From NCBI GenBank assembly GCA_001799895.1, contig MGUI01000052.1, forward strand, positions 87,029-119,028: a stretch of DNA of 32,000 bases, given 5' to 3'. The stretch is from Elusimicrobia bacterium GWD2_63_28. Lineage in GTDB: Bacteria; Elusimicrobiota; Elusimicrobia; Elusimicrobiales; UBA9959. Of the stretch, positions 1 through 29,031 are shown piece after piece. Within the stretch, counting starts at the first letter, position 1; each line of letters opens with the position of its first letter. The position numbers were made by a program, and so were the translations under genes. A model generated the notes under the pieces. The model was not told the origin of the DNA. It ran no database searches and saw only the letters and a program-made list of their open reading frames with translations.

Positions 1-89
1 GCTGTTATGCGTCCCGCGCCCCTCCACGGCTATTATAGGAAAGATAAAGAGGGGATTCAGCCCGCGGCCCCGCCGCCCTGGCGGCGCCC

Positions 90-14973: not shown

Positions 14974-17490
14974 ATGAGCACGAACGAGATCAAAAAACTG
15001 TTCGCGGAGCGCATCCCCGTCTTCGACGGGGCGATGGGCACCTACCTGCCGGCCTTCGGCCTCAAAGAATCGGATTTCGCCGGCCACGACGGGCTAAACG
15101 AGATGCTGTCCCTCTCCCGCCCCGACGTGGTTACCAAGGTCCACGAAGACTATCTCGCCGCCGGCGCGGACTTCATCGAGACCAACACCTTCGGCGCCAA
15201 CGCGGCCGTGCTGGCCGAATACGGCCTGCAGGCCCGGGTGCGCGAGTTCAACATCGCCTCCGCGCGCCTGGCCAGGGCCGCCGCGGAAAAATATTCCGGC
15301 GACGGCAGGAAGCGCTACGTGGCCGGCTCCGTCGGCCCCACCAACAAGGCCCTGTTCGTCACCGGCGGCCTCTCCTTCGACGAACTGCGCAGCGTCTACC
15401 TGGAGCAGCTGCTGGGCCTCATCGAAGGCGGCGCGGACCTGCTGCTGCTCGAGACCGCGCACGACGTGCTGAATCTGAAGGCGGGGCTGGCCGCGGCGCG
15501 CCTGGCCTTCCAGAAAGCCGGCCGGGACCTGCCCGTGATAGTTTCCGCCACCATGGACGAGCGCAACAAGATGCTGTCCGGCCACGACGCGGAGGCCTTC
15601 TTCGCCGCCGTCGAGCATTTCCCGCTCGCGGCCATCGGCTTCAACTGCTCTACCGGGCCCGAGGGGCTGGGGTTGCGCCTCGAGCGCCTGGCCGCCCGCG
15701 CCCAGTACCCCGTCTTCGCCATGCCCAACGCCGGCCTGCCCGACGAGAACGGCCTCTACCTGCAGACCCCGGAGACCTTCTCCGCCGTGATGGCGGGCTA
15801 CGCTAAAAGGGGGCTGCTCAACGCCGCCGGCGGCTGCTGCGGCACCAACCCGGACCACATAAAGGCCCTCGCCGAAGCCGTAAAAGGCGTAAAGCCGCGC
15901 GTCCCGAACGCCGTCGCCCCCTGGGTGGTGTCCGGCGTGGAGGCCCTGTTCTTCGACGAGATAGAGCCGCCCGCCATGGTGGGCGAGCGCAATAATTCCA
16001 TCGGCTCCAAGAAGTTCCGCGACATGGTGGCCGCCGGGGACTGGGACGGGGCCGTGGCCCTGGCCAAGGCCCAGGCCGGGGCGGGAGCCCATATCCTGGA
16101 CGTCTGCCTGGCCAACCCCGAGCGCAACGAACTGGCCGACGTTAAGACCCTTATCCCCAAGCTGGCCCGCGCGGTGCGCCTGCCCGTCATGACCGACACC
16201 ACCGACACCGCCGTGATGGAAGAGGTGCTCAAAGCCGTGCCCGGCAAGGCGCTGCTGAATTCCGTCAACTTCGAGTTCGGCCTCGAAAAGCCGCGCGCCG
16301 CCGCCGAGCTGGTGAAAACCTACGGCGCCAAGCTGGTGTTCGGCTGCATCGACGAGGACAAGGCGCACGGCCTGCCGCTCGACGCGGAGCGCAAGGTGGC
16401 CATAGCCCGCCGCGCCTACGCCTTCCTCACCGAAGAATGCGGCCTGCAGGCCGGCGACATCGTCTTCGATACGCTGGTGTTCCCGGTGGCCGTCGGCGGC
16501 GAGCACGCCAAAACCGCCCACGAGACCATAAAGGCCATAGAGGCTATAAAAGTGGAATTCCCCGGAGTGAAGACCGTGCTCGGCGTCAGCAATGTCTCTT
16601 TCGGCCTGCCGCCCGCCTCCCGCGAGGTACTCAACTCCGTCTTCCTGCACCACGCCGTGAAGGCCGGGCTGGACCTGGCCATAGTCAACATAGAGAAACT
16701 CAAGCGCTACGCCGGGATCTCCCCAGAGGAGAAGGCGCTGGCCGAGGACCTGATCTTCGCGCGCAAGCCGGACGCGGCGCAGCTCTTCGCCGCGCGCTAT
16801 CGCGACGCCAAGAAAGGCCCGGCCGCCCCGGCTGCGCAGGACGCGCCGCCGGCGGAGAAGCTGCGCCTGGCCGTGCTCAACGGCACGCGCAACGGCATAC
16901 CGGAAGCCGTGGCCGCCCTGCTTCAGACGGAGAACCCGCTCGATATTATCAACGGCCCCGTCATGCAGGCCATGGCCGAGGTGGGCAAACAGTTCTCCTG
17001 CGGCGATTTGATAGTGACCGAGGTGCTGCAGAGCGCCGAGGCGGCCAAGGCCGCCGTCACCGCGCTGGAACCGGCGCTGAAGGCGCAGAAAGCCCCCAAG
17101 CGCGGCCGCGTGCTGCTGGCCACCGTGAAGGGCGACGTGCACGACATCGGCAAGAACCTGGTGGGCATCATCTTCGAGAGCAACGGCTTCGAGGTGGAAG
17201 ACCTCGGCGTGAAAGTGGCGCCGGAGGATATAGCCGCCGCGGCCGCCAAGTCGCGCCCCGACTTCATCGGCCTGTCCGGCCTGCTGGTGCGCTCCTGTGA
17301 GCAGATGACCATCACCGCCCGCGAGCTGGCCCGCGCCGGCGTGAACTGCCCGCTGCTGGTGGGCGGCGCCGCCCTGACGCCCAAATTCACCGAAGCCAAC
17401 ATAGTCCCGAATTACGCCGGGCCGGTCTTCTACGCCAAGGACGCGATGGAGGGCCTCAACTACGTGCTGAAGCTCGGGGTCGCCAAATAG
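14974..17490 (+). CDS. metH: Cobalamin-dependent methionine synthase lacking the C-terminal activation domain
   Basis: 838 aa. Domain order is homocysteine S-methyltransferase, pterin-binding, B12-cap, then B12-binding Rossmann domain with DxHxxG (DVHDIGKN). The protein ends right after the B12 domain. SD AAGGAG lies upstream. Confidence 0.92.
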   Translation: MSTNEIKKLFAERIPVFDGAMGTYLPAFGLKESDFAGHDGLNEMLSLSRPDVVTKVHEDYLAAGADFIETNTFGANAAVLAEYGLQARVREFNIASARLARAAAEKYSGDGRKRYVAGSVGPTNKALFVTGGLSFDELRSVYLEQLLGLIEGGADLLLLETAHDVLNLKAGLAAARLAFQKAGRDLPVIVSATMDERNKMLSGHDAEAFFAAVEHFPLAAIGFNCSTGPEGLGLRLERLAARAQYPVFAMPNAGLPDENGLYLQTPETFSAVMAGYAKRGLLNAAGGCCGTNPDHIKALAEAVKGVKPRVPNAVAPWVVSGVEALFFDEIEPPAMVGERNNSIGSKKFRDMVAAGDWDGAVALAKAQAGAGAHILDVCLANPERNELADVKTLIPKLARAVRLPVMTDTTDTAVMEEVLKAVPGKALLNSVNFEFGLEKPRAAAELVKTYGAKLVFGCIDEDKAHGLPLDAERKVAIARRAYAFLTEECGLQAGDIVFDTLVFPVAVGGEHAKTAHETIKAIEAIKVEFPGVKTVLGVSNVSFGLPPASREVLNSVFLHHAVKAGLDLAIVNIEKLKRYAGISPEEKALAEDLIFARKPDAAQLFAARYRDAKKGPAAPAAQDAPPAEKLRLAVLNGTRNGIPEAVAALLQTENPLDIINGPVMQAMAEVGKQFSCGDLIVTEVLQSAEAAKAAVTALEPALKAQKAPKRGRVLLATVKGDVHDIGKNLVGIIFESNGFEVEDLGVKVAPEDIAAAAAKSRPDFIGLSGLLVRSCEQMTITARELARAGVNCPLLVGGAALTPKFTEANIVPNYAGPVFYAKDAMEGLNYVLKLGVAK

Positions 17491-18275
17491 TGGCGGCCCG
17501 CTTCCCGGCCGATAACCCGGTCCCCGCGGACCTGGAGCGGCATTTCGTCGAGCAGCCGCTGCCCGAGCTGTTCGCCAACATGGACGAGGACCTGTTCAAC
17601 CTGCGCTTTCTCGGCCTGAAGAAAGCGCAGGAGGATAAGCGCCGCGAGGCCGCCGCGCAGCTGGCCGCCCTTAAAGAGGAAGTGCTGACGAAAGGGCTGA
17701 TAAAGGCGCGCGGCGTCTACCGCTTCTTCCCGGCCGCTTCCGACGGCGACAAGATCCGAGTTTACGGCGGGGACGGGGCCGAAGCGGCCGTTCTGAACTT
17801 CCCGCGCCAGGCCGCCGGCGACCGCCTCTGCCTGGCCGACTTCACCGCCCCGGCGGCTGACGCTAAAAAAGATCATATCGCCCTGCTGGTAGTCACCTGC
17901 GGCGAGGGCGTGCTGGCCCTCGCCCGCCGAGAGCGCGAGGCCGGCAACTATGTGCGGTCCTACCTGGTAGAGGCGCTGGCCCTGACGCTGGCCGAGGCCT
18001 TCGCCGACGTGCTGCATTACCGCATCCGGCGGGAGTGGGGTATAGCGGAGGAGAACCCGGTCATCCCGCTGCTGCGCAGCAAGTACCGCGGCAAGCGCTA
18101 CTCCTTCGGCTACCCGGTCTGCCCGGACCTGGCCAACCAGGCTGTTCTATTCGACCTGCTCAAGCCCGAGCCCGACGCCGGCATCAAGCTGACCGACGGC
18201 TATATGATGGACCCTGAAGCCTCGGTCTCGGCCATAGTCTTCCACACCCCCGCCGCCGTCTACTTCGGCATCTAG
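17490..18275 (+). CDS. Methionine synthase activation (AdoMet-binding, reactivation) domain protein
   Basis: 261 aa. The GTG start overlaps the metH stop by 1 nt (TAGTG). Motifs: FPRQ, LCLADF, GYPVCPD, EASVSAIVFHTPAAVYF, as in the MetH C-terminal domain. Confidence 0.85.
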   Translation: MAARFPADNPVPADLERHFVEQPLPELFANMDEDLFNLRFLGLKKAQEDKRREAAAQLAALKEEVLTKGLIKARGVYRFFPAASDGDKIRVYGGDGAEAAVLNFPRQAAGDRLCLADFTAPAADAKKDHIALLVVTCGEGVLALARREREAGNYVRSYLVEALALTLAEAFADVLHYRIRREWGIAEENPVIPLLRSKYRGKRYSFGYPVCPDLANQAVLFDLLKPEPDAGIKLTDGYMMDPEASVSAIVFHTPAAVYFGI

Positions 18276-18316
18276 CCTGTCGAGGTTGAACCTCCACGAG
18301 GTTCAGCCTCGACAGG
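18276..18316 (+). terminator. Long hairpin directly after the metH-activation gene stop; probable terminator or RNA-stability element with no adjacent U-tract
   Basis: The 19-bp stem is CCTGTCGAGGTTGAACCTC / GAGGTTCAGCCTCGACAGG with one U.G pair and a 3-nt loop CAC. It starts 1 nt after TAG (18273-18275). Confidence 0.5.
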
Positions 18317-18342
18317 GAGTTGACATGGGACTTTTTTGGGTC

Positions 18343-18370
18343 TTGACAGCGGGGATTGGTCTGCTATACT
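18343..18370 (+). promoter_or_regulatory. Near-consensus sigma70 promoter P1 driving hairpin RNA copy 1
   Basis: -35 TTGACA (18343-18348), a 16-nt spacer, TGc (18362-18364), then -10 TATACT (18365-18370). The hairpin RNA begins 7 nt downstream of the -10. Confidence 0.6.
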
Positions 18371-18376
18371 ATGAAT

Positions 18377-18423
18377 GGGTCCGCGGCCCCTCTCAGTGGG
18401 TTTCTCGCGGGCCCTTTCTTTTT
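18377..18423 (+). ncRNA. Candidate 47-nt small RNA, copy 1 (hairpin plus U-tract)
   Basis: Sequence GGGTCCGCGGCCCCTCTCAGTGGGTTTCTCGCGGGCCCTTTCTTTTT. The 9-bp basal stem is 18377-18385 / 18406-18414 with one U.G pair. An inner CCC/GGG helix is possible. The U-tract is 18415-18423. It is 46/47 identical to copy 2. Confidence 0.5.
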
Positions 18424-18509
18424 GGATGGAAACGGGGAGGGAGGGAAGCGTTCCGCGGCCTGATTCCGGGGCCCGACCGGGCATGCTCCGGCCGTGCGCG
18501 GCGCACCCC

Positions 18510-18537
18510 TTGACAAGTCAAGACTATCTGCTATAAT
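18510..18537 (+). promoter_or_regulatory. Consensus sigma70 promoter P2 driving hairpin RNA copy 2
   Basis: -35 TTGACA (18510-18515), a 16-nt spacer, TGc (18529-18531), then -10 TATAAT (18532-18537). Geometry is the same as P1. Confidence 0.6.
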
Positions 18538-18543
18538 ATATTT

Positions 18544-18590
18544 GGGTCCGCGGCCCCTCTCAGTGGGTTTCTCGCGGACCCTTTCTTTTT
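18544..18590 (+). ncRNA. Candidate 47-nt small RNA, copy 2 (hairpin plus U-tract); may also act as terminator for the convergent WG-repeat gene
   Basis: Sequence GGGTCCGCGGCCCCTCTCAGTGGGTTTCTCGCGGACCCTTTCTTTTT. The perfect 9-bp basal stem is 18544-18552 / 18573-18581. It ends 4 nt before the stop codon (18594-18596) of the minus-strand gene. Confidence 0.5.
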
Positions 18591-18593
18591 GTC

Positions 18594-19553
18594 CTATTTC
18601 TTGTATTCAAAACCTTTGGCGTCTATGTAGAAGGAGCGGCCCCCCAGGCTTACCCTGGCTATGCCGCCGCGGAAGCCAGAGGCCTGCGAATACTTGAAAT
18701 CTATCACGGCCTTGCCGGTCTTGTCTATGTAGCCCCAGCCGCCGTGGAAATCCTTGAGCGCCGGCGCCAGGCCGCCCTCGAAGGAGGCGCACATGGCGAA
18801 GAGGGCCGGTATGGCCTGTTTGCCCTCTGAGTCTATGTAGCCGCAGCGGCCTTCCCCCTCCAGCGCCTGCGCGTGGGCCAGGCCCTCGCTGTAGGGCCCG
18901 ATGGCGACGAAGTCGCGCGCCTTGAAAGCCAGCGTCGAGCGGTTGATGAAGCCGTACCTGTCGCCCAGCCTGGCCGCCGCGAAGCCCCCGCTGAAAGGGA
19001 AGGCTTCGGCGTAGACCGGCGGGGTGGCTTCTTTGCCCGAGAGGTCTATGAAGCCGTACTTGCCGTTCACTTTCACCCGGGCCAGGCCCTCGCTCGGCGG
19101 GTAGATCTCTTCGTAGATGCCGCTGCGGAACTCGCGCGCGTCCCTGAGCAGCAGCCCCCAGCGCCCGCCCTTCTTGGCCGGCGCGGCGCCACCTGAGAAC
19201 TGCAGCAGCTCCTCGTATTCAAAAGGCACGGCCGTTTTTCCGGCCTTGTCCACGCAGCCCCAGAGCCCGCGCGATTTTACCGGCGCGCAGCCCTCGCTGA
19301 AAGAGCCGGCCGACTGGTAACGGGGGGGAATAGCCTTGCCGCCCTTCTTGTCTATGAAACCGTATTTTCCTCCGGAGCGCACCAGCGCCAGCCCCTCGCT
19401 GAAGGGCTCGGCGTAGTCGTAGCGCGCGGGTATGCGCAGTTTGCCGCCGGGCGCGGCGTAGCCCCACTTGCCGCCGGAGTTGAAAGGGATGAGTTCCTGC
19501 GCGGAGGCTCCGGCGCAGCAGGCCAGCAGCAGGGCAAAAGCTATTTTCTTCAT
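18594..19553 (-). CDS. Exported WG-repeat (KWG-type) protein
   Basis: 319 aa with signal peptide MKKIAFALLLACCAGASA. It has about eight repeats of the form GKWGYIDxxGKxxIPxxYxxAxxFSEGLAxV. Confidence 0.85.
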   Translation of the reverse strand: MKKIAFALLLACCAGASAQELIPFNSGGKWGYAAPGGKLRIPARYDYAEPFSEGLALVRSGGKYGFIDKKGGKAIPPRYQSAGSFSEGCAPVKSRGLWGCVDKAGKTAVPFEYEELLQFSGGAAPAKKGGRWGLLLRDAREFRSGIYEEIYPPSEGLARVKVNGKYGFIDLSGKEATPPVYAEAFPFSGGFAAARLGDRYGFINRSTLAFKARDFVAIGPYSEGLAHAQALEGEGRCGYIDSEGKQAIPALFAMCASFEGGLAPALKDFHGGWGYIDKTGKAVIDFKYSQASGFRGGIARVSLGGRSFYIDAKGFEYKK

Positions 19554-21086: not shown

Positions 21087-21998
21087 ATGGGAAACGTCCC
21101 GTTTGCGGTTATCCTTTTCGCCGTTCTGACGCTTCCGGCCTCCGGGGGCGAGGGGGCGGTTTTACCCGCGGCTTCCGTGGGCGGCGGAATCGTGTCCGAA
21201 CAGGACATTTCGGACTGGCAGGCGGCGCAGGGGTGCTATGGCGAGGACGCCATTACCTCGCGCAAGGCCGGTTTCATGCGCATGTTCGAGGCCACCATAC
21301 TCGAAGATCTGCTGGTGCACCAGGCCACGCGGCCCATAAACGCGGAGGATTACGCCAAAGAAGTGGCGCGCATAGACAGGGAAACCCGCGCGCCGGACAT
21401 CCTGGGCTGCATTAAGAAATATTTCGGCGAGGGCACGGCCCGCTACGAAAGGGTCTTCATAAGGCCCATCCTGGCGCAGCGCTTCCTAAGGGAATACGTG
21501 AAAACGGACCCGGCGGTGCAGGCCAAAGCTTACGCGCAGCGCGAAGGCGCGCTGAAGGACATAGCCAAAAAGAAGGCCTTCAAGGCCATAGGGGAGGAGC
21601 GCGGCATCGCCTATTCCACCTCGGCCTACGCGGTGGAAGAGGACACCACCGCACCACAGGCCCTGGAGCCTTGGAAGCGCTGGTCGCCTTTCGAGGCCGC
21701 TTTCATCAACGAGCACCTGAAGGGCCTGAAACCGGGCGAGGTGAAGCCGCAGCCCATAGAGGACGAGGCTAACATAAAATTTGTGCGGCTGATAAAGATA
21801 GAAGGCAAAAAATACTATTTCGAGACGCTGACCATCGCCAAACTCACCACCGAAGACTACCTCAGGCGCGTCACCAAACTGCCTTGCAGGATTAACGACA
21901 GGGAATTGCACGACTGGGTGGCCCCCATAAAAGGCAACCCGCTGATAGCCCCGGCGGACCTGGATGGTCCGGGCGGAGCCAGTGGGGCCGGCAAGTAG
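21087..21998 (+). CDS. Exported hypothetical protein; possibly a SurA/PrsA-like chaperone with a degenerate parvulin-like C-terminal part
   Basis: 303 aa with a strong SD and a hydrophobic N-terminus MGNVPFAVILFAVLTLPASG. The C-terminal segment FINEHLKGLKPGEVKPQPIEDEANIKFVRLIKIEG loosely resembles PpiC-type PPIase. The function call is weak. Confidence 0.6.
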   Translation: MGNVPFAVILFAVLTLPASGGEGAVLPAASVGGGIVSEQDISDWQAAQGCYGEDAITSRKAGFMRMFEATILEDLLVHQATRPINAEDYAKEVARIDRETRAPDILGCIKKYFGEGTARYERVFIRPILAQRFLREYVKTDPAVQAKAYAQREGALKDIAKKKAFKAIGEERGIAYSTSAYAVEEDTTAPQALEPWKRWSPFEAAFINEHLKGLKPGEVKPQPIEDEANIKFVRLIKIEGKKYYFETLTIAKLTTEDYLRRVTKLPCRINDRELHDWVAPIKGNPLIAPADLDGPGGASGAGK

Positions 21999-22011
21999 GA
22001 AAATAAAAACG

Positions 22012-29031
<7,020 letters not shown>

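Follow-up and report, generated by a model that had tools for sequence, protein, structure and literature searches.

Type I 3′ UTR sRNAs such as DapZ and MicL are transcribed from their own promoter, share the terminator of the mRNA and carry a single-stranded seed 5′ of that terminator. In 6C, sX13, RsaE/RoxS and RepG, whose C-rich motifs are aimed at G-rich or Shine–Dalgarno (SD) sequences, the C-run lies unpaired in a loop and is conserved more strongly than any other element. 6S RNA, CsrB/RsmZ and GlmY have sizes of ca. 110–370 nt, and the ToxI repeats of type III toxin–antitoxin systems are contiguous, with one common promoter and a co-oriented toxin gene downstream. Pairing by plasmid antisense RNAs starts from small loops, and antisense transcripts controlled by a riboswitch or a protein are represented by the B12-controlled AspocR in Listeria and an S-box-controlled antisense RNA in Clostridium acetobutylicum. 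To our knowledge, RNA-based regulation is almost unexplored in Elusimicrobia, a largely uncultivated phylum, and a full-text literature search on small and noncoding RNAs of Elusimicrobia found nothing relevant.

The window, that is, the whole 32-kb stretch of DNA analysed here, contains two units on the plus strand, each consisting of a promoter and a hairpin (units A and B; Table 1), with a start-to-start distance of 167 nt. Both had been described in a sequence-only reading of the window, and every coordinate given there was confirmed, as was the 46/47 identity between the two predicted RNAs. Their sole difference, G18411 versus A18578, is at RNA position 35, the partner of U4, and changes a U.G pair to a U-A pair, again as proposed. 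The promoters were more alike than had been described: the spacers had been considered diverged apart from the −35, TGn and −10 elements, which understates the common promoter block TCTGCTATA. Units A and B were the top two promoter matches in 20 kb (A: 11/12 consensus, B: 12/12 consensus, both with TG). For the pattern TTGACA-N13-TGNTATAMT, 0.00 matches were expected from 100 window shuffles even when one mismatch was allowed, in line with the earlier argument that such boxes are very unlikely to occur twice by chance. The start site and 3′ end of sRNA A given in Table 1 are predictions from promoter geometry and the terminator. Covariance model (CM) scores were 80.1 bits for sRNA A and 80.7 bits for sRNA B; the RNA unit occurred in only two copies within the window, where TRF found no tandem-repeat array.

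Table 1. Coordinates of the two units and the adjacent features (positions in the window)
Feature	Position	Strand	Description
metH activation-domain gene	17490–18275	+	Stand-alone activation domain of B12-dependent methionine synthase (split MetH); Pfam PF02965, E = 6.9e-49
Upstream element of A-type promoter	18327–18342	+	GGGACTTTTTTGGGTC; T6 tract at about −43 to −48
Unit A	18343–18423	+	Architecture common to both units: TTGACA, 13 nt, TGC-TATA(C/A)T, 6 nt, 38-nt GC-rich hairpin, U-tract
Predicted promoter A	18343–18370	+	−35 TTGACA 18343–18348; 16-nt spacer ending in TGC 18362–18364; −10 TATACT 18365–18370
Discriminator of unit A			6 nt, ATGAAT, between −10 and RNA A
Predicted sRNA A	18377–18423	+	Predicted +1 G18377 at hairpin base; hairpin 18377–18414; U-tract UUUCUUUUU 18415–18423
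Unit B	18510–18590	+	Same architecture as unit A
Predicted promoter B	18509–18537	+	−35 TTGACA 18510–18515; TGC 18529–18531; −10 TATAAT 18532–18537
Palindrome	18509–18522		CTTGACAAGTCAAG; overlaps −35 of promoter B
Discriminator of unit B			6 nt, ATATTT, between −10 and RNA B
Predicted sRNA B	18544–18590	+	Predicted +1 G18544; hairpin 18544–18581; U-tract 18582–18590
WG-repeat protein gene, convergent	18594–19553	−	Pfam PF14903, E = 2.6e-75; stop codon 3 nt past U-tract of unit B

Further copies were gathered by genome and metagenome scans and by synteny-guided fetching; 2 of the 11 genome-scan hits (L011 and L020) were dropped as chance matches, as were metagenome-scan loci without a model hit. 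More than 50 copies were found in other genomes and metagenomes, comprising 29 distinct RNAs and 40 distinct promoter-plus-RNA units, and in the scans the family was confined to one clade of uncultivated Elusimicrobia. Units A and B, which are paralogous sister copies, occurred singly, in tandem or 1.7–2.5 kb apart. The tandem arrangement does not define the family, as one or two genes separate A from B in other genomes. Wherever unit A was present, it was preceded by the metH activation-domain gene, and in some genomes it began right after the metH stop codon. Because unit A directly follows this stop codon in several genomes, its hairpin probably also terminates the metH mRNA. Unit B was located at the 3′ end of the WG-repeat gene in nearly all genomes, and the WG-repeat orthologues had a signal-peptide-like N-terminus. 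The convergent neighbours of most units were the WG-repeat gene, an S1-domain gene, a 169-aa gene or an IS110 transposase gene. At one locus (L082), the gene after the unit was co-oriented and had its own promoter-like sequence past the terminator. Another terminator hairpin on the plus strand lay downstream of about half of the units, which suggests that the RNA is highly expressed. Identity was 68%–91% for the flanking proteins and, by alignment inspection, 85%–100% between the main-group RNAs and the copies in the window. No clue to function comes from the genes nearby (metH, WG-repeat, S1-domain and TPR).

An independent bacterial sRNA gene is expected to have its own conserved promoter, and a promoter with constant spacing to the hairpin base was intact in 39 of the 40 distinct promoter-plus-RNA units, with 0.00 matches expected by chance. 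The pattern shared by these 39 units was TTGAC[A/G]-13 nt-TGC-TAnAnT-6 nt-G(+1), and it preceded the hairpin at every occurrence in the ca. 0.5 Mb of collected sequence. Conservation began sharply at the −35 element (or at the upstream element) and ended at the U-tract, and the sequence outside the units was diverged. The sequence-only reading had considered that the hairpin might occur solely as a generic terminator lacking the promoter boxes; this was not the case, given the promoters in 39 of 40 units.

The RNA itself showed the conserved structure with covariation that is also expected of such a gene. In the window, the predicted folding energies were −24.0 kcal/mol for sRNA A (z = −3.9; −3.85 unrounded) and −24.6 kcal/mol for sRNA B (z = −4.5; −4.46 unrounded), and 0 of 200 shuffles were as stable. 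For RNA positions 11–29, the apical 19 nt of the hairpin, 0.00 matches were expected by chance with up to three mismatches. The consensus hairpin of the family is 38 nt long, with 15 bp, a 3-nt apical loop N-U-N and two bulges, both on the 3′ strand (1–2 nt and 2–4 nt). Except for the ninth pair and two A.C cells at pair 2, pairing was kept in every distinct sequence; compensatory changes occurred in eight pairs and a one-sided change in one. Among the modelled pairs, 7 of 13 were compensatory and 98.2% of cells were paired; slid-register controls gave 0–1. RNAalifold independently arrived at the same fold. Consistent with an intrinsic terminator belonging to each gene, the hairpin and UUUCUUUUU were flagged by the terminator scan, and the U-tract was conserved. 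The earlier proposal of selection on the promoter as well as on the RNA structure is strongly supported by the intact promoters and the covarying helix.

A structure-based parse of the 29 distinct RNAs added an apical pair, 14–20, which was C-G in 23 and U-A in six. All of these RNAs kept the U15-A19 pair and a U at the centre of the apical loop, and the loop occurred as AUU (9), CUC (6), UUC (4), AUC (4), CUU (3) and AUA (3); paralogues A and B often had unlike apical loops within one genome. The upper stem and flanking nucleotides (GCCCCU..AGUGGGUU) were invariant in the main clade; this apparent apical conservation is inflated because some of the copies were collected using RNA-derived sequence patterns, and the synteny-based sample was small. 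Variability was greatest among the free nucleotides, namely those of the apical loop, bulges and tail. The lower stem and U-tail correspond to the needs of any strong terminator, and termination efficiency alone may explain part of the conservation.

G.U pairs were found at G10.U25 in 27 of 29 RNAs and at U4.G35 in 4 of 29, and the minus-strand fold was weaker than the plus-strand fold. Given the G.U pairs and the U-tract, selection acts on the plus-strand RNA. A DNA cruciform or a minus-strand RNA was rejected, since G10.U25 and U4.G35 are mismatches on the other strand and the fold of that strand is weaker. A coding function was likewise rejected: the ATG at 18375 precedes the predicted +1 and is not conserved (the discriminators ATATTT, ATCTTT and ATCAAC lack it), and covariation and the G.U pairs also disfavour this reading.

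In agreement with the sequence-only reading, which had recognised no known RNA family, Rfam 15 gave no hit at the gathering threshold over the whole window. At E ≤ 10, no hit in positions 18200–18700 overlapped the units, and at E ≤ 1, eight homologous loci gave only sub-threshold, terminator-like hits (ncr1175, 34.8 vs. 60 bits; anti-hemB, 25.7 vs. 49.5; suhB, 24.9 vs. 41). ARAGORN detected no tRNA or tmRNA genes in the window. Mimicry of a tRNA anticodon arm was suggested by the apical C-U-NNN-A-G, but this register would require one additional bulged base, neither AUU nor AUA occurs naturally as an anticodon in bacteria, and a 3-nt loop is instead closed by pairs 14–20 and 15–19. By inspection, the defining motifs of SRP RNA, 6S RNA, a PyrR-binding loop and boxB were absent. 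A mobile or phage origin was rejected because IMG/VR gave one chance hit without the hairpin and the phage and plasmid collections gave no match. A dispersed REP- or MITE-like repeat was also rejected, as there were two copies in 32 kb and the copies sampled elsewhere were at the same two syntenic positions, with the promoter present in 39 of 40. The tandem arrangement of small RNA units in the window resembles that of ToxI antitoxin RNAs. Unlike ToxI, however, each unit has a separate promoter and terminator, no toxin gene or other co-oriented open reading frame lies downstream, TRF found no array, and in other genomes the units are not linked; a type III antitoxin array was therefore rejected. 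On these searches, the family of predicted ca. 45-nt small RNA genes is previously undescribed.

It is highly probable that the units are genuine sRNA genes in their own right. Each would be driven by a sigma-70 promoter that is close to consensus and has an extended −10 element, transcription is predicted to begin at the first G of the hairpin, and the hairpin followed by UUUCUUUUU would serve as an intrinsic terminator. Given this architecture, the predicted product is an RNA of ca. 45 nt with a 5′-triphosphate, paired from its first base and U-tailed, and such an RNA should be plentiful and stable. We infer the start site, termination and abundance, as well as the protein-ligand mechanism considered below, from sequence features. 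Unit A resembles type I 3′ UTR sRNAs in its place directly behind a co-oriented gene, that for the metH activation domain, and in combining a promoter of its own with a U-tailed terminator hairpin. In contrast to DapZ and MicL, the Elusimicrobia transcript would lack any 5′ region before the hairpin, and it shows no sequence relationship to them and no Rfam hit. For a bacterial sRNA, a transcript consisting of a bulged hairpin and a U-tail and nothing else is an unusual architecture. As a candidate the family is clean: it is short and has strong covariation, textbook promoter and terminator signals and two differently promoted paralogues.

The RNA might act as a structured protein ligand, such as a decoy, a sponge or a subunit of a ribonucleoprotein (RNP). 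A protein ligand appears most likely because almost nothing in the RNA is single-stranded, because sequence constraint is stronger in the helices than in the loop, bulges and tail, and because in more distant lineages the apical part has changed en bloc. The complete proposal, namely paralogous, autonomous and clade-restricted sRNA genes whose RNA is a protein ligand, is advanced only tentatively. The proposed mode resembles that of 6S RNA, CsrB/RsmZ and GlmY, in which an abundant, stable RNA with multiple paralogues is recognised by its shape and by specific helix or bulge nucleotides. The Elusimicrobia RNA, at ca. 45 nt, is much smaller than these and contains neither GGA motifs nor a 6S-type central bubble. 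A more specific version, which we consider possible but somewhat unlikely, is that the RNA is the subunit or decoy of a clade-specific, novel RNA–protein system, i.e., a seedless, hairpin-only RNA of ca. 45 nt acting purely by being bound. It would then be produced at very high output from two differently regulated promoters, one UP-like (A) and one with an operator-like palindrome (B), and would titrate or guide a protein. If so, it would be smaller than any known bacterial protein-sequestering RNA and could represent a bacterial design counterpart of small Pol III-type hairpin RNAs; a protein partner, if it exists, would define a very small regulatory RNP.

Rather unlikely, in our view, is that independent sRNA genes encode an RNA acting in trans by base pairing. 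Pairing could start by loop–loop “kissing” followed by helix opening of the upper stem, involve the pyrimidine-rich bulge or tail, or be directed by CCCCUCUC against a G-rich SD sequence, the last of which had been suggested in the sequence-only reading. The C/U-rich composition and the invariance of GCCCCU..AGUGGGUU in the main clade are consistent with such a role, and the unlike apical loops of A and B within one genome could give distinct target specificities. The same invariant sequence also fits a base-pairing interface that opens on target binding, which speaks against a protein ligand. Like 6C, sX13, RsaE/RoxS and RepG, the RNA would be a small sRNA of a GC-rich genome with a CCCC run, pyrimidine-rich segments, an independent gene and an intrinsic terminator. 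However, the C-run of the Elusimicrobia RNA is paired (C11–C14 with G20 and G22–24) rather than displayed in a conserved, unpaired C-rich loop. Most of CCCCUCUC (C11–U15) lies within the helix of a −24 kcal/mol hairpin, leaving a free loop of 3 nt that occurs in six variants, and C14-G20 is replaced by U-A in deeper relatives. The single-stranded parts are the least conserved, the opposite of what would be expected of a seed. The FecR target put forward earlier, AGAGGGG, is an ordinary SD sequence, and the match is not conserved in orthologues (AAGGGG, GAGGAG, GAGGAU, GGGAGG and GGGGAGG). A duplex scan of the 32-kb window found no target above the GC-rich background, and self-antisense alone stood out. 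If the RNA were nevertheless an ordinary base-pairing regulator, or a by-product of a terminator, it would be a routine addition to RNA family catalogues.

That the function lies at the level of DNA or transcription, with the RNA as a by-product, is improbable. Under this reading, the hairpin would terminate transcription strongly, and partly in both directions, where genes adjoin, and the promoter would keep RNA polymerase loaded there as an insulator or collision barrier shielding neighbouring genes from read-through. Consistent with this, most units lie between an upstream co-oriented gene and one of the convergent genes named above, the WG-repeat stop codon in the window is close to the U-tract, and unit A, which in some genomes comes straight after the metH stop codon, is probably a metH terminator too. 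As in intrinsic terminators, including bidirectional ones, a GC-rich stem and a U-tract are found at gene ends. In contrast to generic terminators, 39 of 40 units have a consensus promoter upstream of the hairpin at a distance of exactly 6 nt, and sequence-level conservation across species extends to the upper stem, the bulges and the pair that closes the apical loop, whose conservation a terminator does not need. Furthermore, the G.U pairs and U-tract favour the plus strand alone, the second hairpins face plus-strand read-through rather than the convergent gene, and the L082 unit precedes a co-oriented gene. We know of no precedent in which a consensus promoter, perfectly conserved, is joined to a terminator so as to act as an insulator or barrier. 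Less probable still is a conditional antisense regulator, in which read-through of a regulated terminator would produce antisense RNA or interference against the convergent WG-repeat or S1-domain gene. The convergent orientation of the downstream gene in most contexts would suit such a regulator, and it supports the earlier view that the RNA is not a leader, attenuator or riboswitch. With its predicted start at the base of the hairpin, the transcript would have no upstream sequence for an antiterminator and no alternative pairing partner. The second terminator in about half of the units implies selection against read-through, unit A in the tandem arrangement runs into unit B instead of a gene, and the gene downstream of the L082 unit is co-oriented.

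The units provide the first well-supported strong sigma-70-type extended −10 promoters for this lineage, which should be of use in annotation and expression tools. The two promoter types differ around the −35 element. The T6 tract of GGGACTTTTTTGGGTC resembles an UP element and may act as one; A-type units of other species keep this element as (T/G)AGGACTTTTTTGGGYC, and the sequence farther upstream is unalignable. The palindrome CTTGACAAGTCAAG of promoter B may serve as an operator, and TTGACA(A/G)GT(C/T)AA was found again in B-type units of other species.

Both units of the window have the sequence and coordinates described in the sequence-only reading (see the table below), and the sole difference between their RNAs lies at position 35, counted from the predicted +1 (G18411 in A versus A18578 in B), facing U4. 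The units are spaced 167 nt apart, and the repeat (family D14) runs from TCTGCTATA to the end of the U-tract. In a 20-kb scan, the promoters of B (12/12) and A (11/12), each with the TG extension, were the two best matches. Shuffles of the window gave 0.00 expected chance matches for the composite promoter pattern, and likewise for the 19-nt apical hairpin segment (RNA positions 11–29). The plus-strand RNAs fold at −24.0 and −24.6 kcal/mol (both with z near −4), and the minus-strand versions fold more weakly (−17.1 and −22.2).

Units A and B with their flanking genes in the window, and elements of the RNA in a structure-based parse of 29 distinct RNAs
Feature	Window position	Strand	Sequence or variation
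MetH activation-domain gene, stand-alone, flanking	17490–18275	+	
Unit A −35	18343–18348	+	TTGACA
Unit A TGC	18362–18364	+	TGC
Unit A −10	18365–18370	+	TATACT
Unit A discriminator		+	ATGAAT, 6 nt
Unit A RNA	18377–18423	+	
Unit B −35	18510–18515	+	TTGACA
Unit B TGC	18529–18531	+	TGC
Unit B −10	18532–18537	+	TATAAT
Unit B discriminator		+	ATATTT, 6 nt
Unit B RNA	18544–18590	+	
WG-repeat protein gene, flanking, convergent	18594–19553	−	
Lower stem			9 bp; covarying pairs 2, 3, 4, 7, 8, 9
3′ bulge 2			2–4 nt: UUCU, UUU, UA, AUU or GUA
Upper stem			G.U and three C-G pairs; variants: one U-A, one G-C
3′ bulge 1			1–2 nt: U, C or AC
Pair 14–20			C-G in 23 RNAs, U-A in 6
Pair 15–19			U-A, invariant
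Apical loop			3 nt, N-U-N: AUU, CUC, UUC, AUC, CUU or AUA
Tail			UUUCUUUUU-like

The window sequence lies within contig DOYQ01000054.1 of an Elusimicrobia MAG (GCA_003518445.1), and the locus also occurs in groundwater metagenome assemblies, including PRJNA268031. With the 19-nt apical segment as query, a scan covering a single genome for each GTDB species yielded 11 loci, nine of them true homologues, nearly all titled Elusimicrobia, Elusimicrobiales or Elusimicrobiaceae; a degenerate pattern retrieved 51 metagenome loci. The covariance-model search for further copies, proposed as a check in the sequence-only reading, found homologues in the metagenome loci: the model (R1), built from the first 11 copies, gave 32 plus-strand matches of at least 45 bits in 25 of the 51 metagenome loci. 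By synteny, independently of the RNA sequence, contigs encoding homologues of the MetH activation-domain protein were collected. The RNA was present 3′ of this gene at 65–69% protein identity (loci L073, L074, L078, L080, L082, L083 and L084) and absent from L079 (62%) and L075–L077 (≤ 59%), where the gene order also differs. Because of this presence at 65–69% and absence at ≤ 62% identity, the family appears to be confined to one clade. Flanking proteins of the collected loci share 68–91% identity with those of the window. Two loci, L018 (DMCN01000032.1, titled Gallionellaceae UBA12482) and L021 (titled "bacterium"), carry the sRNA with metH and WG genes 68–76% identical to the window; the Gallionellaceae label is probably due to a mis-binned contig.

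The claim that the promoter is conserved together with the RNA held in 39 of 40 distinct units, which share TTGAC[A/G], 13 nt, TGC, TAnAnT, 6 nt and a G at the hairpin base, with zero variation in the spacing from the −35 to that base. Of these 39, 38 have TTGACA as the −35; at the −10, 27 units carry TATACT and nine TATAAT. When 13 units were aligned together with their flanks, conservation began at the −35 (or an upstream element) and stopped past the U-tract, and every occurrence of the promoter pattern in approximately 0.5 Mb of collected sequence leads into the hairpin. The one exception, the unit in L041 (59–165, +), has an intact RNA behind a degenerate promoter (TTGCAA ... GGGAACTAT instead of TTGACA ... 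TGCTATACT) and may be a copy that has weakened or is decaying.

The two units are real, whereas their tandem layout is not a general feature: A and B are two paralogues rather than a tandem repeat as such. They are adjacent in the window, L013, L014, L015, L017 and L019, but 1.7–2.5 kb apart in L025, L034, L042, L057, L078 and L083, separated by a convergent S1-domain gene and usually one more (TPR-like in L025); only B is seen in L012, L016 and L021, and only A in L018, L073, L074, L082 and L084. Unit A lies 3′ of the MetH activation-domain gene and its promoter carries a conserved upstream GGACTTTTTTGGGYC, whereas unit B adjoins the convergent WG-repeat gene at its 3′ end and has a palindrome overlapping the −35 (TTGAC-AA-GTCAA, window 18509–18522), conserved in B-type units elsewhere. 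This difference suggests that A and B may be regulated differently, B for example by a dimeric DNA-binding protein. The downstream gene is convergent as a rule; the exception, a co-oriented radical-SAM gene in L082, has its own promoter-like sequence past the terminator. Roughly half of the distinct units (23 of 42 by the script's criteria) have a second, non-conserved plus-strand hairpin with its own U-tract within approximately 25 nt, which we read as a sign that read-through from a highly active promoter is selected against.

Covariation, called for in the sequence-only reading, was evident. Across 53 copies (26 distinct) aligned to the model, pairing reached 98.2% and compensatory changes appeared at 7 of the 13 modelled pairs, against only 0–1 in control registers shifted by 1–3 columns; RNAalifold returned an identical fold plus two apical pairs. 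As the structure-based parse shows, the RNA is essentially a 15-bp bulged helix. G10.U25 occurs in 27 of 29 RNAs and U4.G35 in four; together with the one-sided U-tract, these wobble pairs indicate that the plus-strand RNA is under selection, not the DNA or an opposite transcript.

The architecture of the units, their conservation and covariation, their strand specificity and their paralogy are all observed, and we are highly confident that these are genuine, independent sRNA genes. Transcription would start at the first G of the hairpin, 7 nt past the −10, and terminate at the U-tract, so that the product would be a 5′-triphosphate RNA of approximately 45 nt, base-paired from the very first nucleotide. 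Given how 5′-end-dependent decay works, stability is to be expected of this RNA, and its promoter predicts that it is also abundant.

How the RNA might act is a more tentative matter. Its helices are the most conserved parts and its single-stranded parts the least, the opposite of seed-pairing sRNAs, in which single-stranded parts are more conserved than helices. This pattern points to a protein ligand, a possible role that we favour with reserve, in which the surface of helix, bulges and loop would be read by a protein that would have co-evolved in the deeper lineage. It speaks against base pairing through the apical loop or the tail, which we regard as rather unlikely, and a target search within the window produced no outstanding candidate. 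The anti-SD role speculated earlier is not supported, as C11–U15 sit in helices, the unpaired apical loop varies, and C14-G20 becomes U-A with an altered adjacent 3′ bulge in deeper relatives; its suggested target, AGAGGGG of the FecR gene, is simply a variable SD. A terminator or insulator module acting at the transcription level is improbable, and a conditional antisense regulator more so still; a small share of probability goes to none of these explanations.

Rfam 15 contains no matching family, only sub-threshold terminator-like similarities, which agrees with the initial impression of an RNA outside known families. No tRNA or tandem array was found, the family is not present in viral, phage and plasmid collections, and literature searches turned up nothing on Elusimicrobia sRNAs. 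Among known systems, unit A resembles DapZ and MicL (3′UTR-embedded sRNA genes with their own promoter) in gene organisation but lacks any 5′ seed region; the RNA is similar in composition to the C-rich-motif sRNAs 6C, sX13 and RsaE but misses their defining unpaired, conserved C-loop; and its proposed action is like that of the protein-sequestering 6S, CsrB and GlmY, although it has none of their motifs. A real, previously undescribed sRNA family is well supported; its architecture is unusually minimal and lacks a seed, and its two paralogues are under different promoters. To a phylum that has been little studied it adds a solid, directly testable RNA motif, which would in itself surprise specialists only if it proved to have a novel protein partner.

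Several features of the neighbourhood were also observed. The B12-dependent methionine synthase is split throughout the clade, here into an 838-aa core (14974–17490, +) and a separate 261-aa activation-domain gene, overlapping by one base. Between the metH stop and unit A lies a long hairpin without a U-tract (18276–18316, +; CCTGTCGAGGTTGAACCTCCACGAGGTTCAGCCTCGACAGG). The motif GAGGTT(G/C)A(A/G)CCTC recurs in hairpins beside the sRNA units of two other genomes, there downstream of unit A (L078, 1262–1296; L034, 2590–2620), and may represent a small recurrent palindromic element or terminator family. An extra TTGACA at 18320–18325, 23 nt upstream of the unit A −35 (GAGTTGACATGGGAC), has a counterpart in L014 and L015 (TTGACG or TTGACA); no matching −10 was seen. 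The S1-domain gene encodes a protein of approximately 400 aa that may be ribosomal protein S1; in many genomes (L025, L034, L041, L078, L083, L084) it converges on unit A, and it also occupies the metH–WG interval of L076, an outgroup without the RNA. On one metagenome contig (L047), an IS110-family transposase gene (921–1868, +) lies immediately downstream of, and convergent with, an sRNA unit (1991–2037, −); since hairpins and REP-like sites are frequent targets of IS110 elements, the hairpin may be a former insertion target. Farther along the window (21964–29031, +), a giant 2355-aa protein with Gly-rich, Kelch, fn3, beta-helix and FGE-sulfatase domains is encoded by a gene with internal 138–147-nt repeats, followed on contig DOYQ01000054.1 by an ORF of approximately 8,480 aa.
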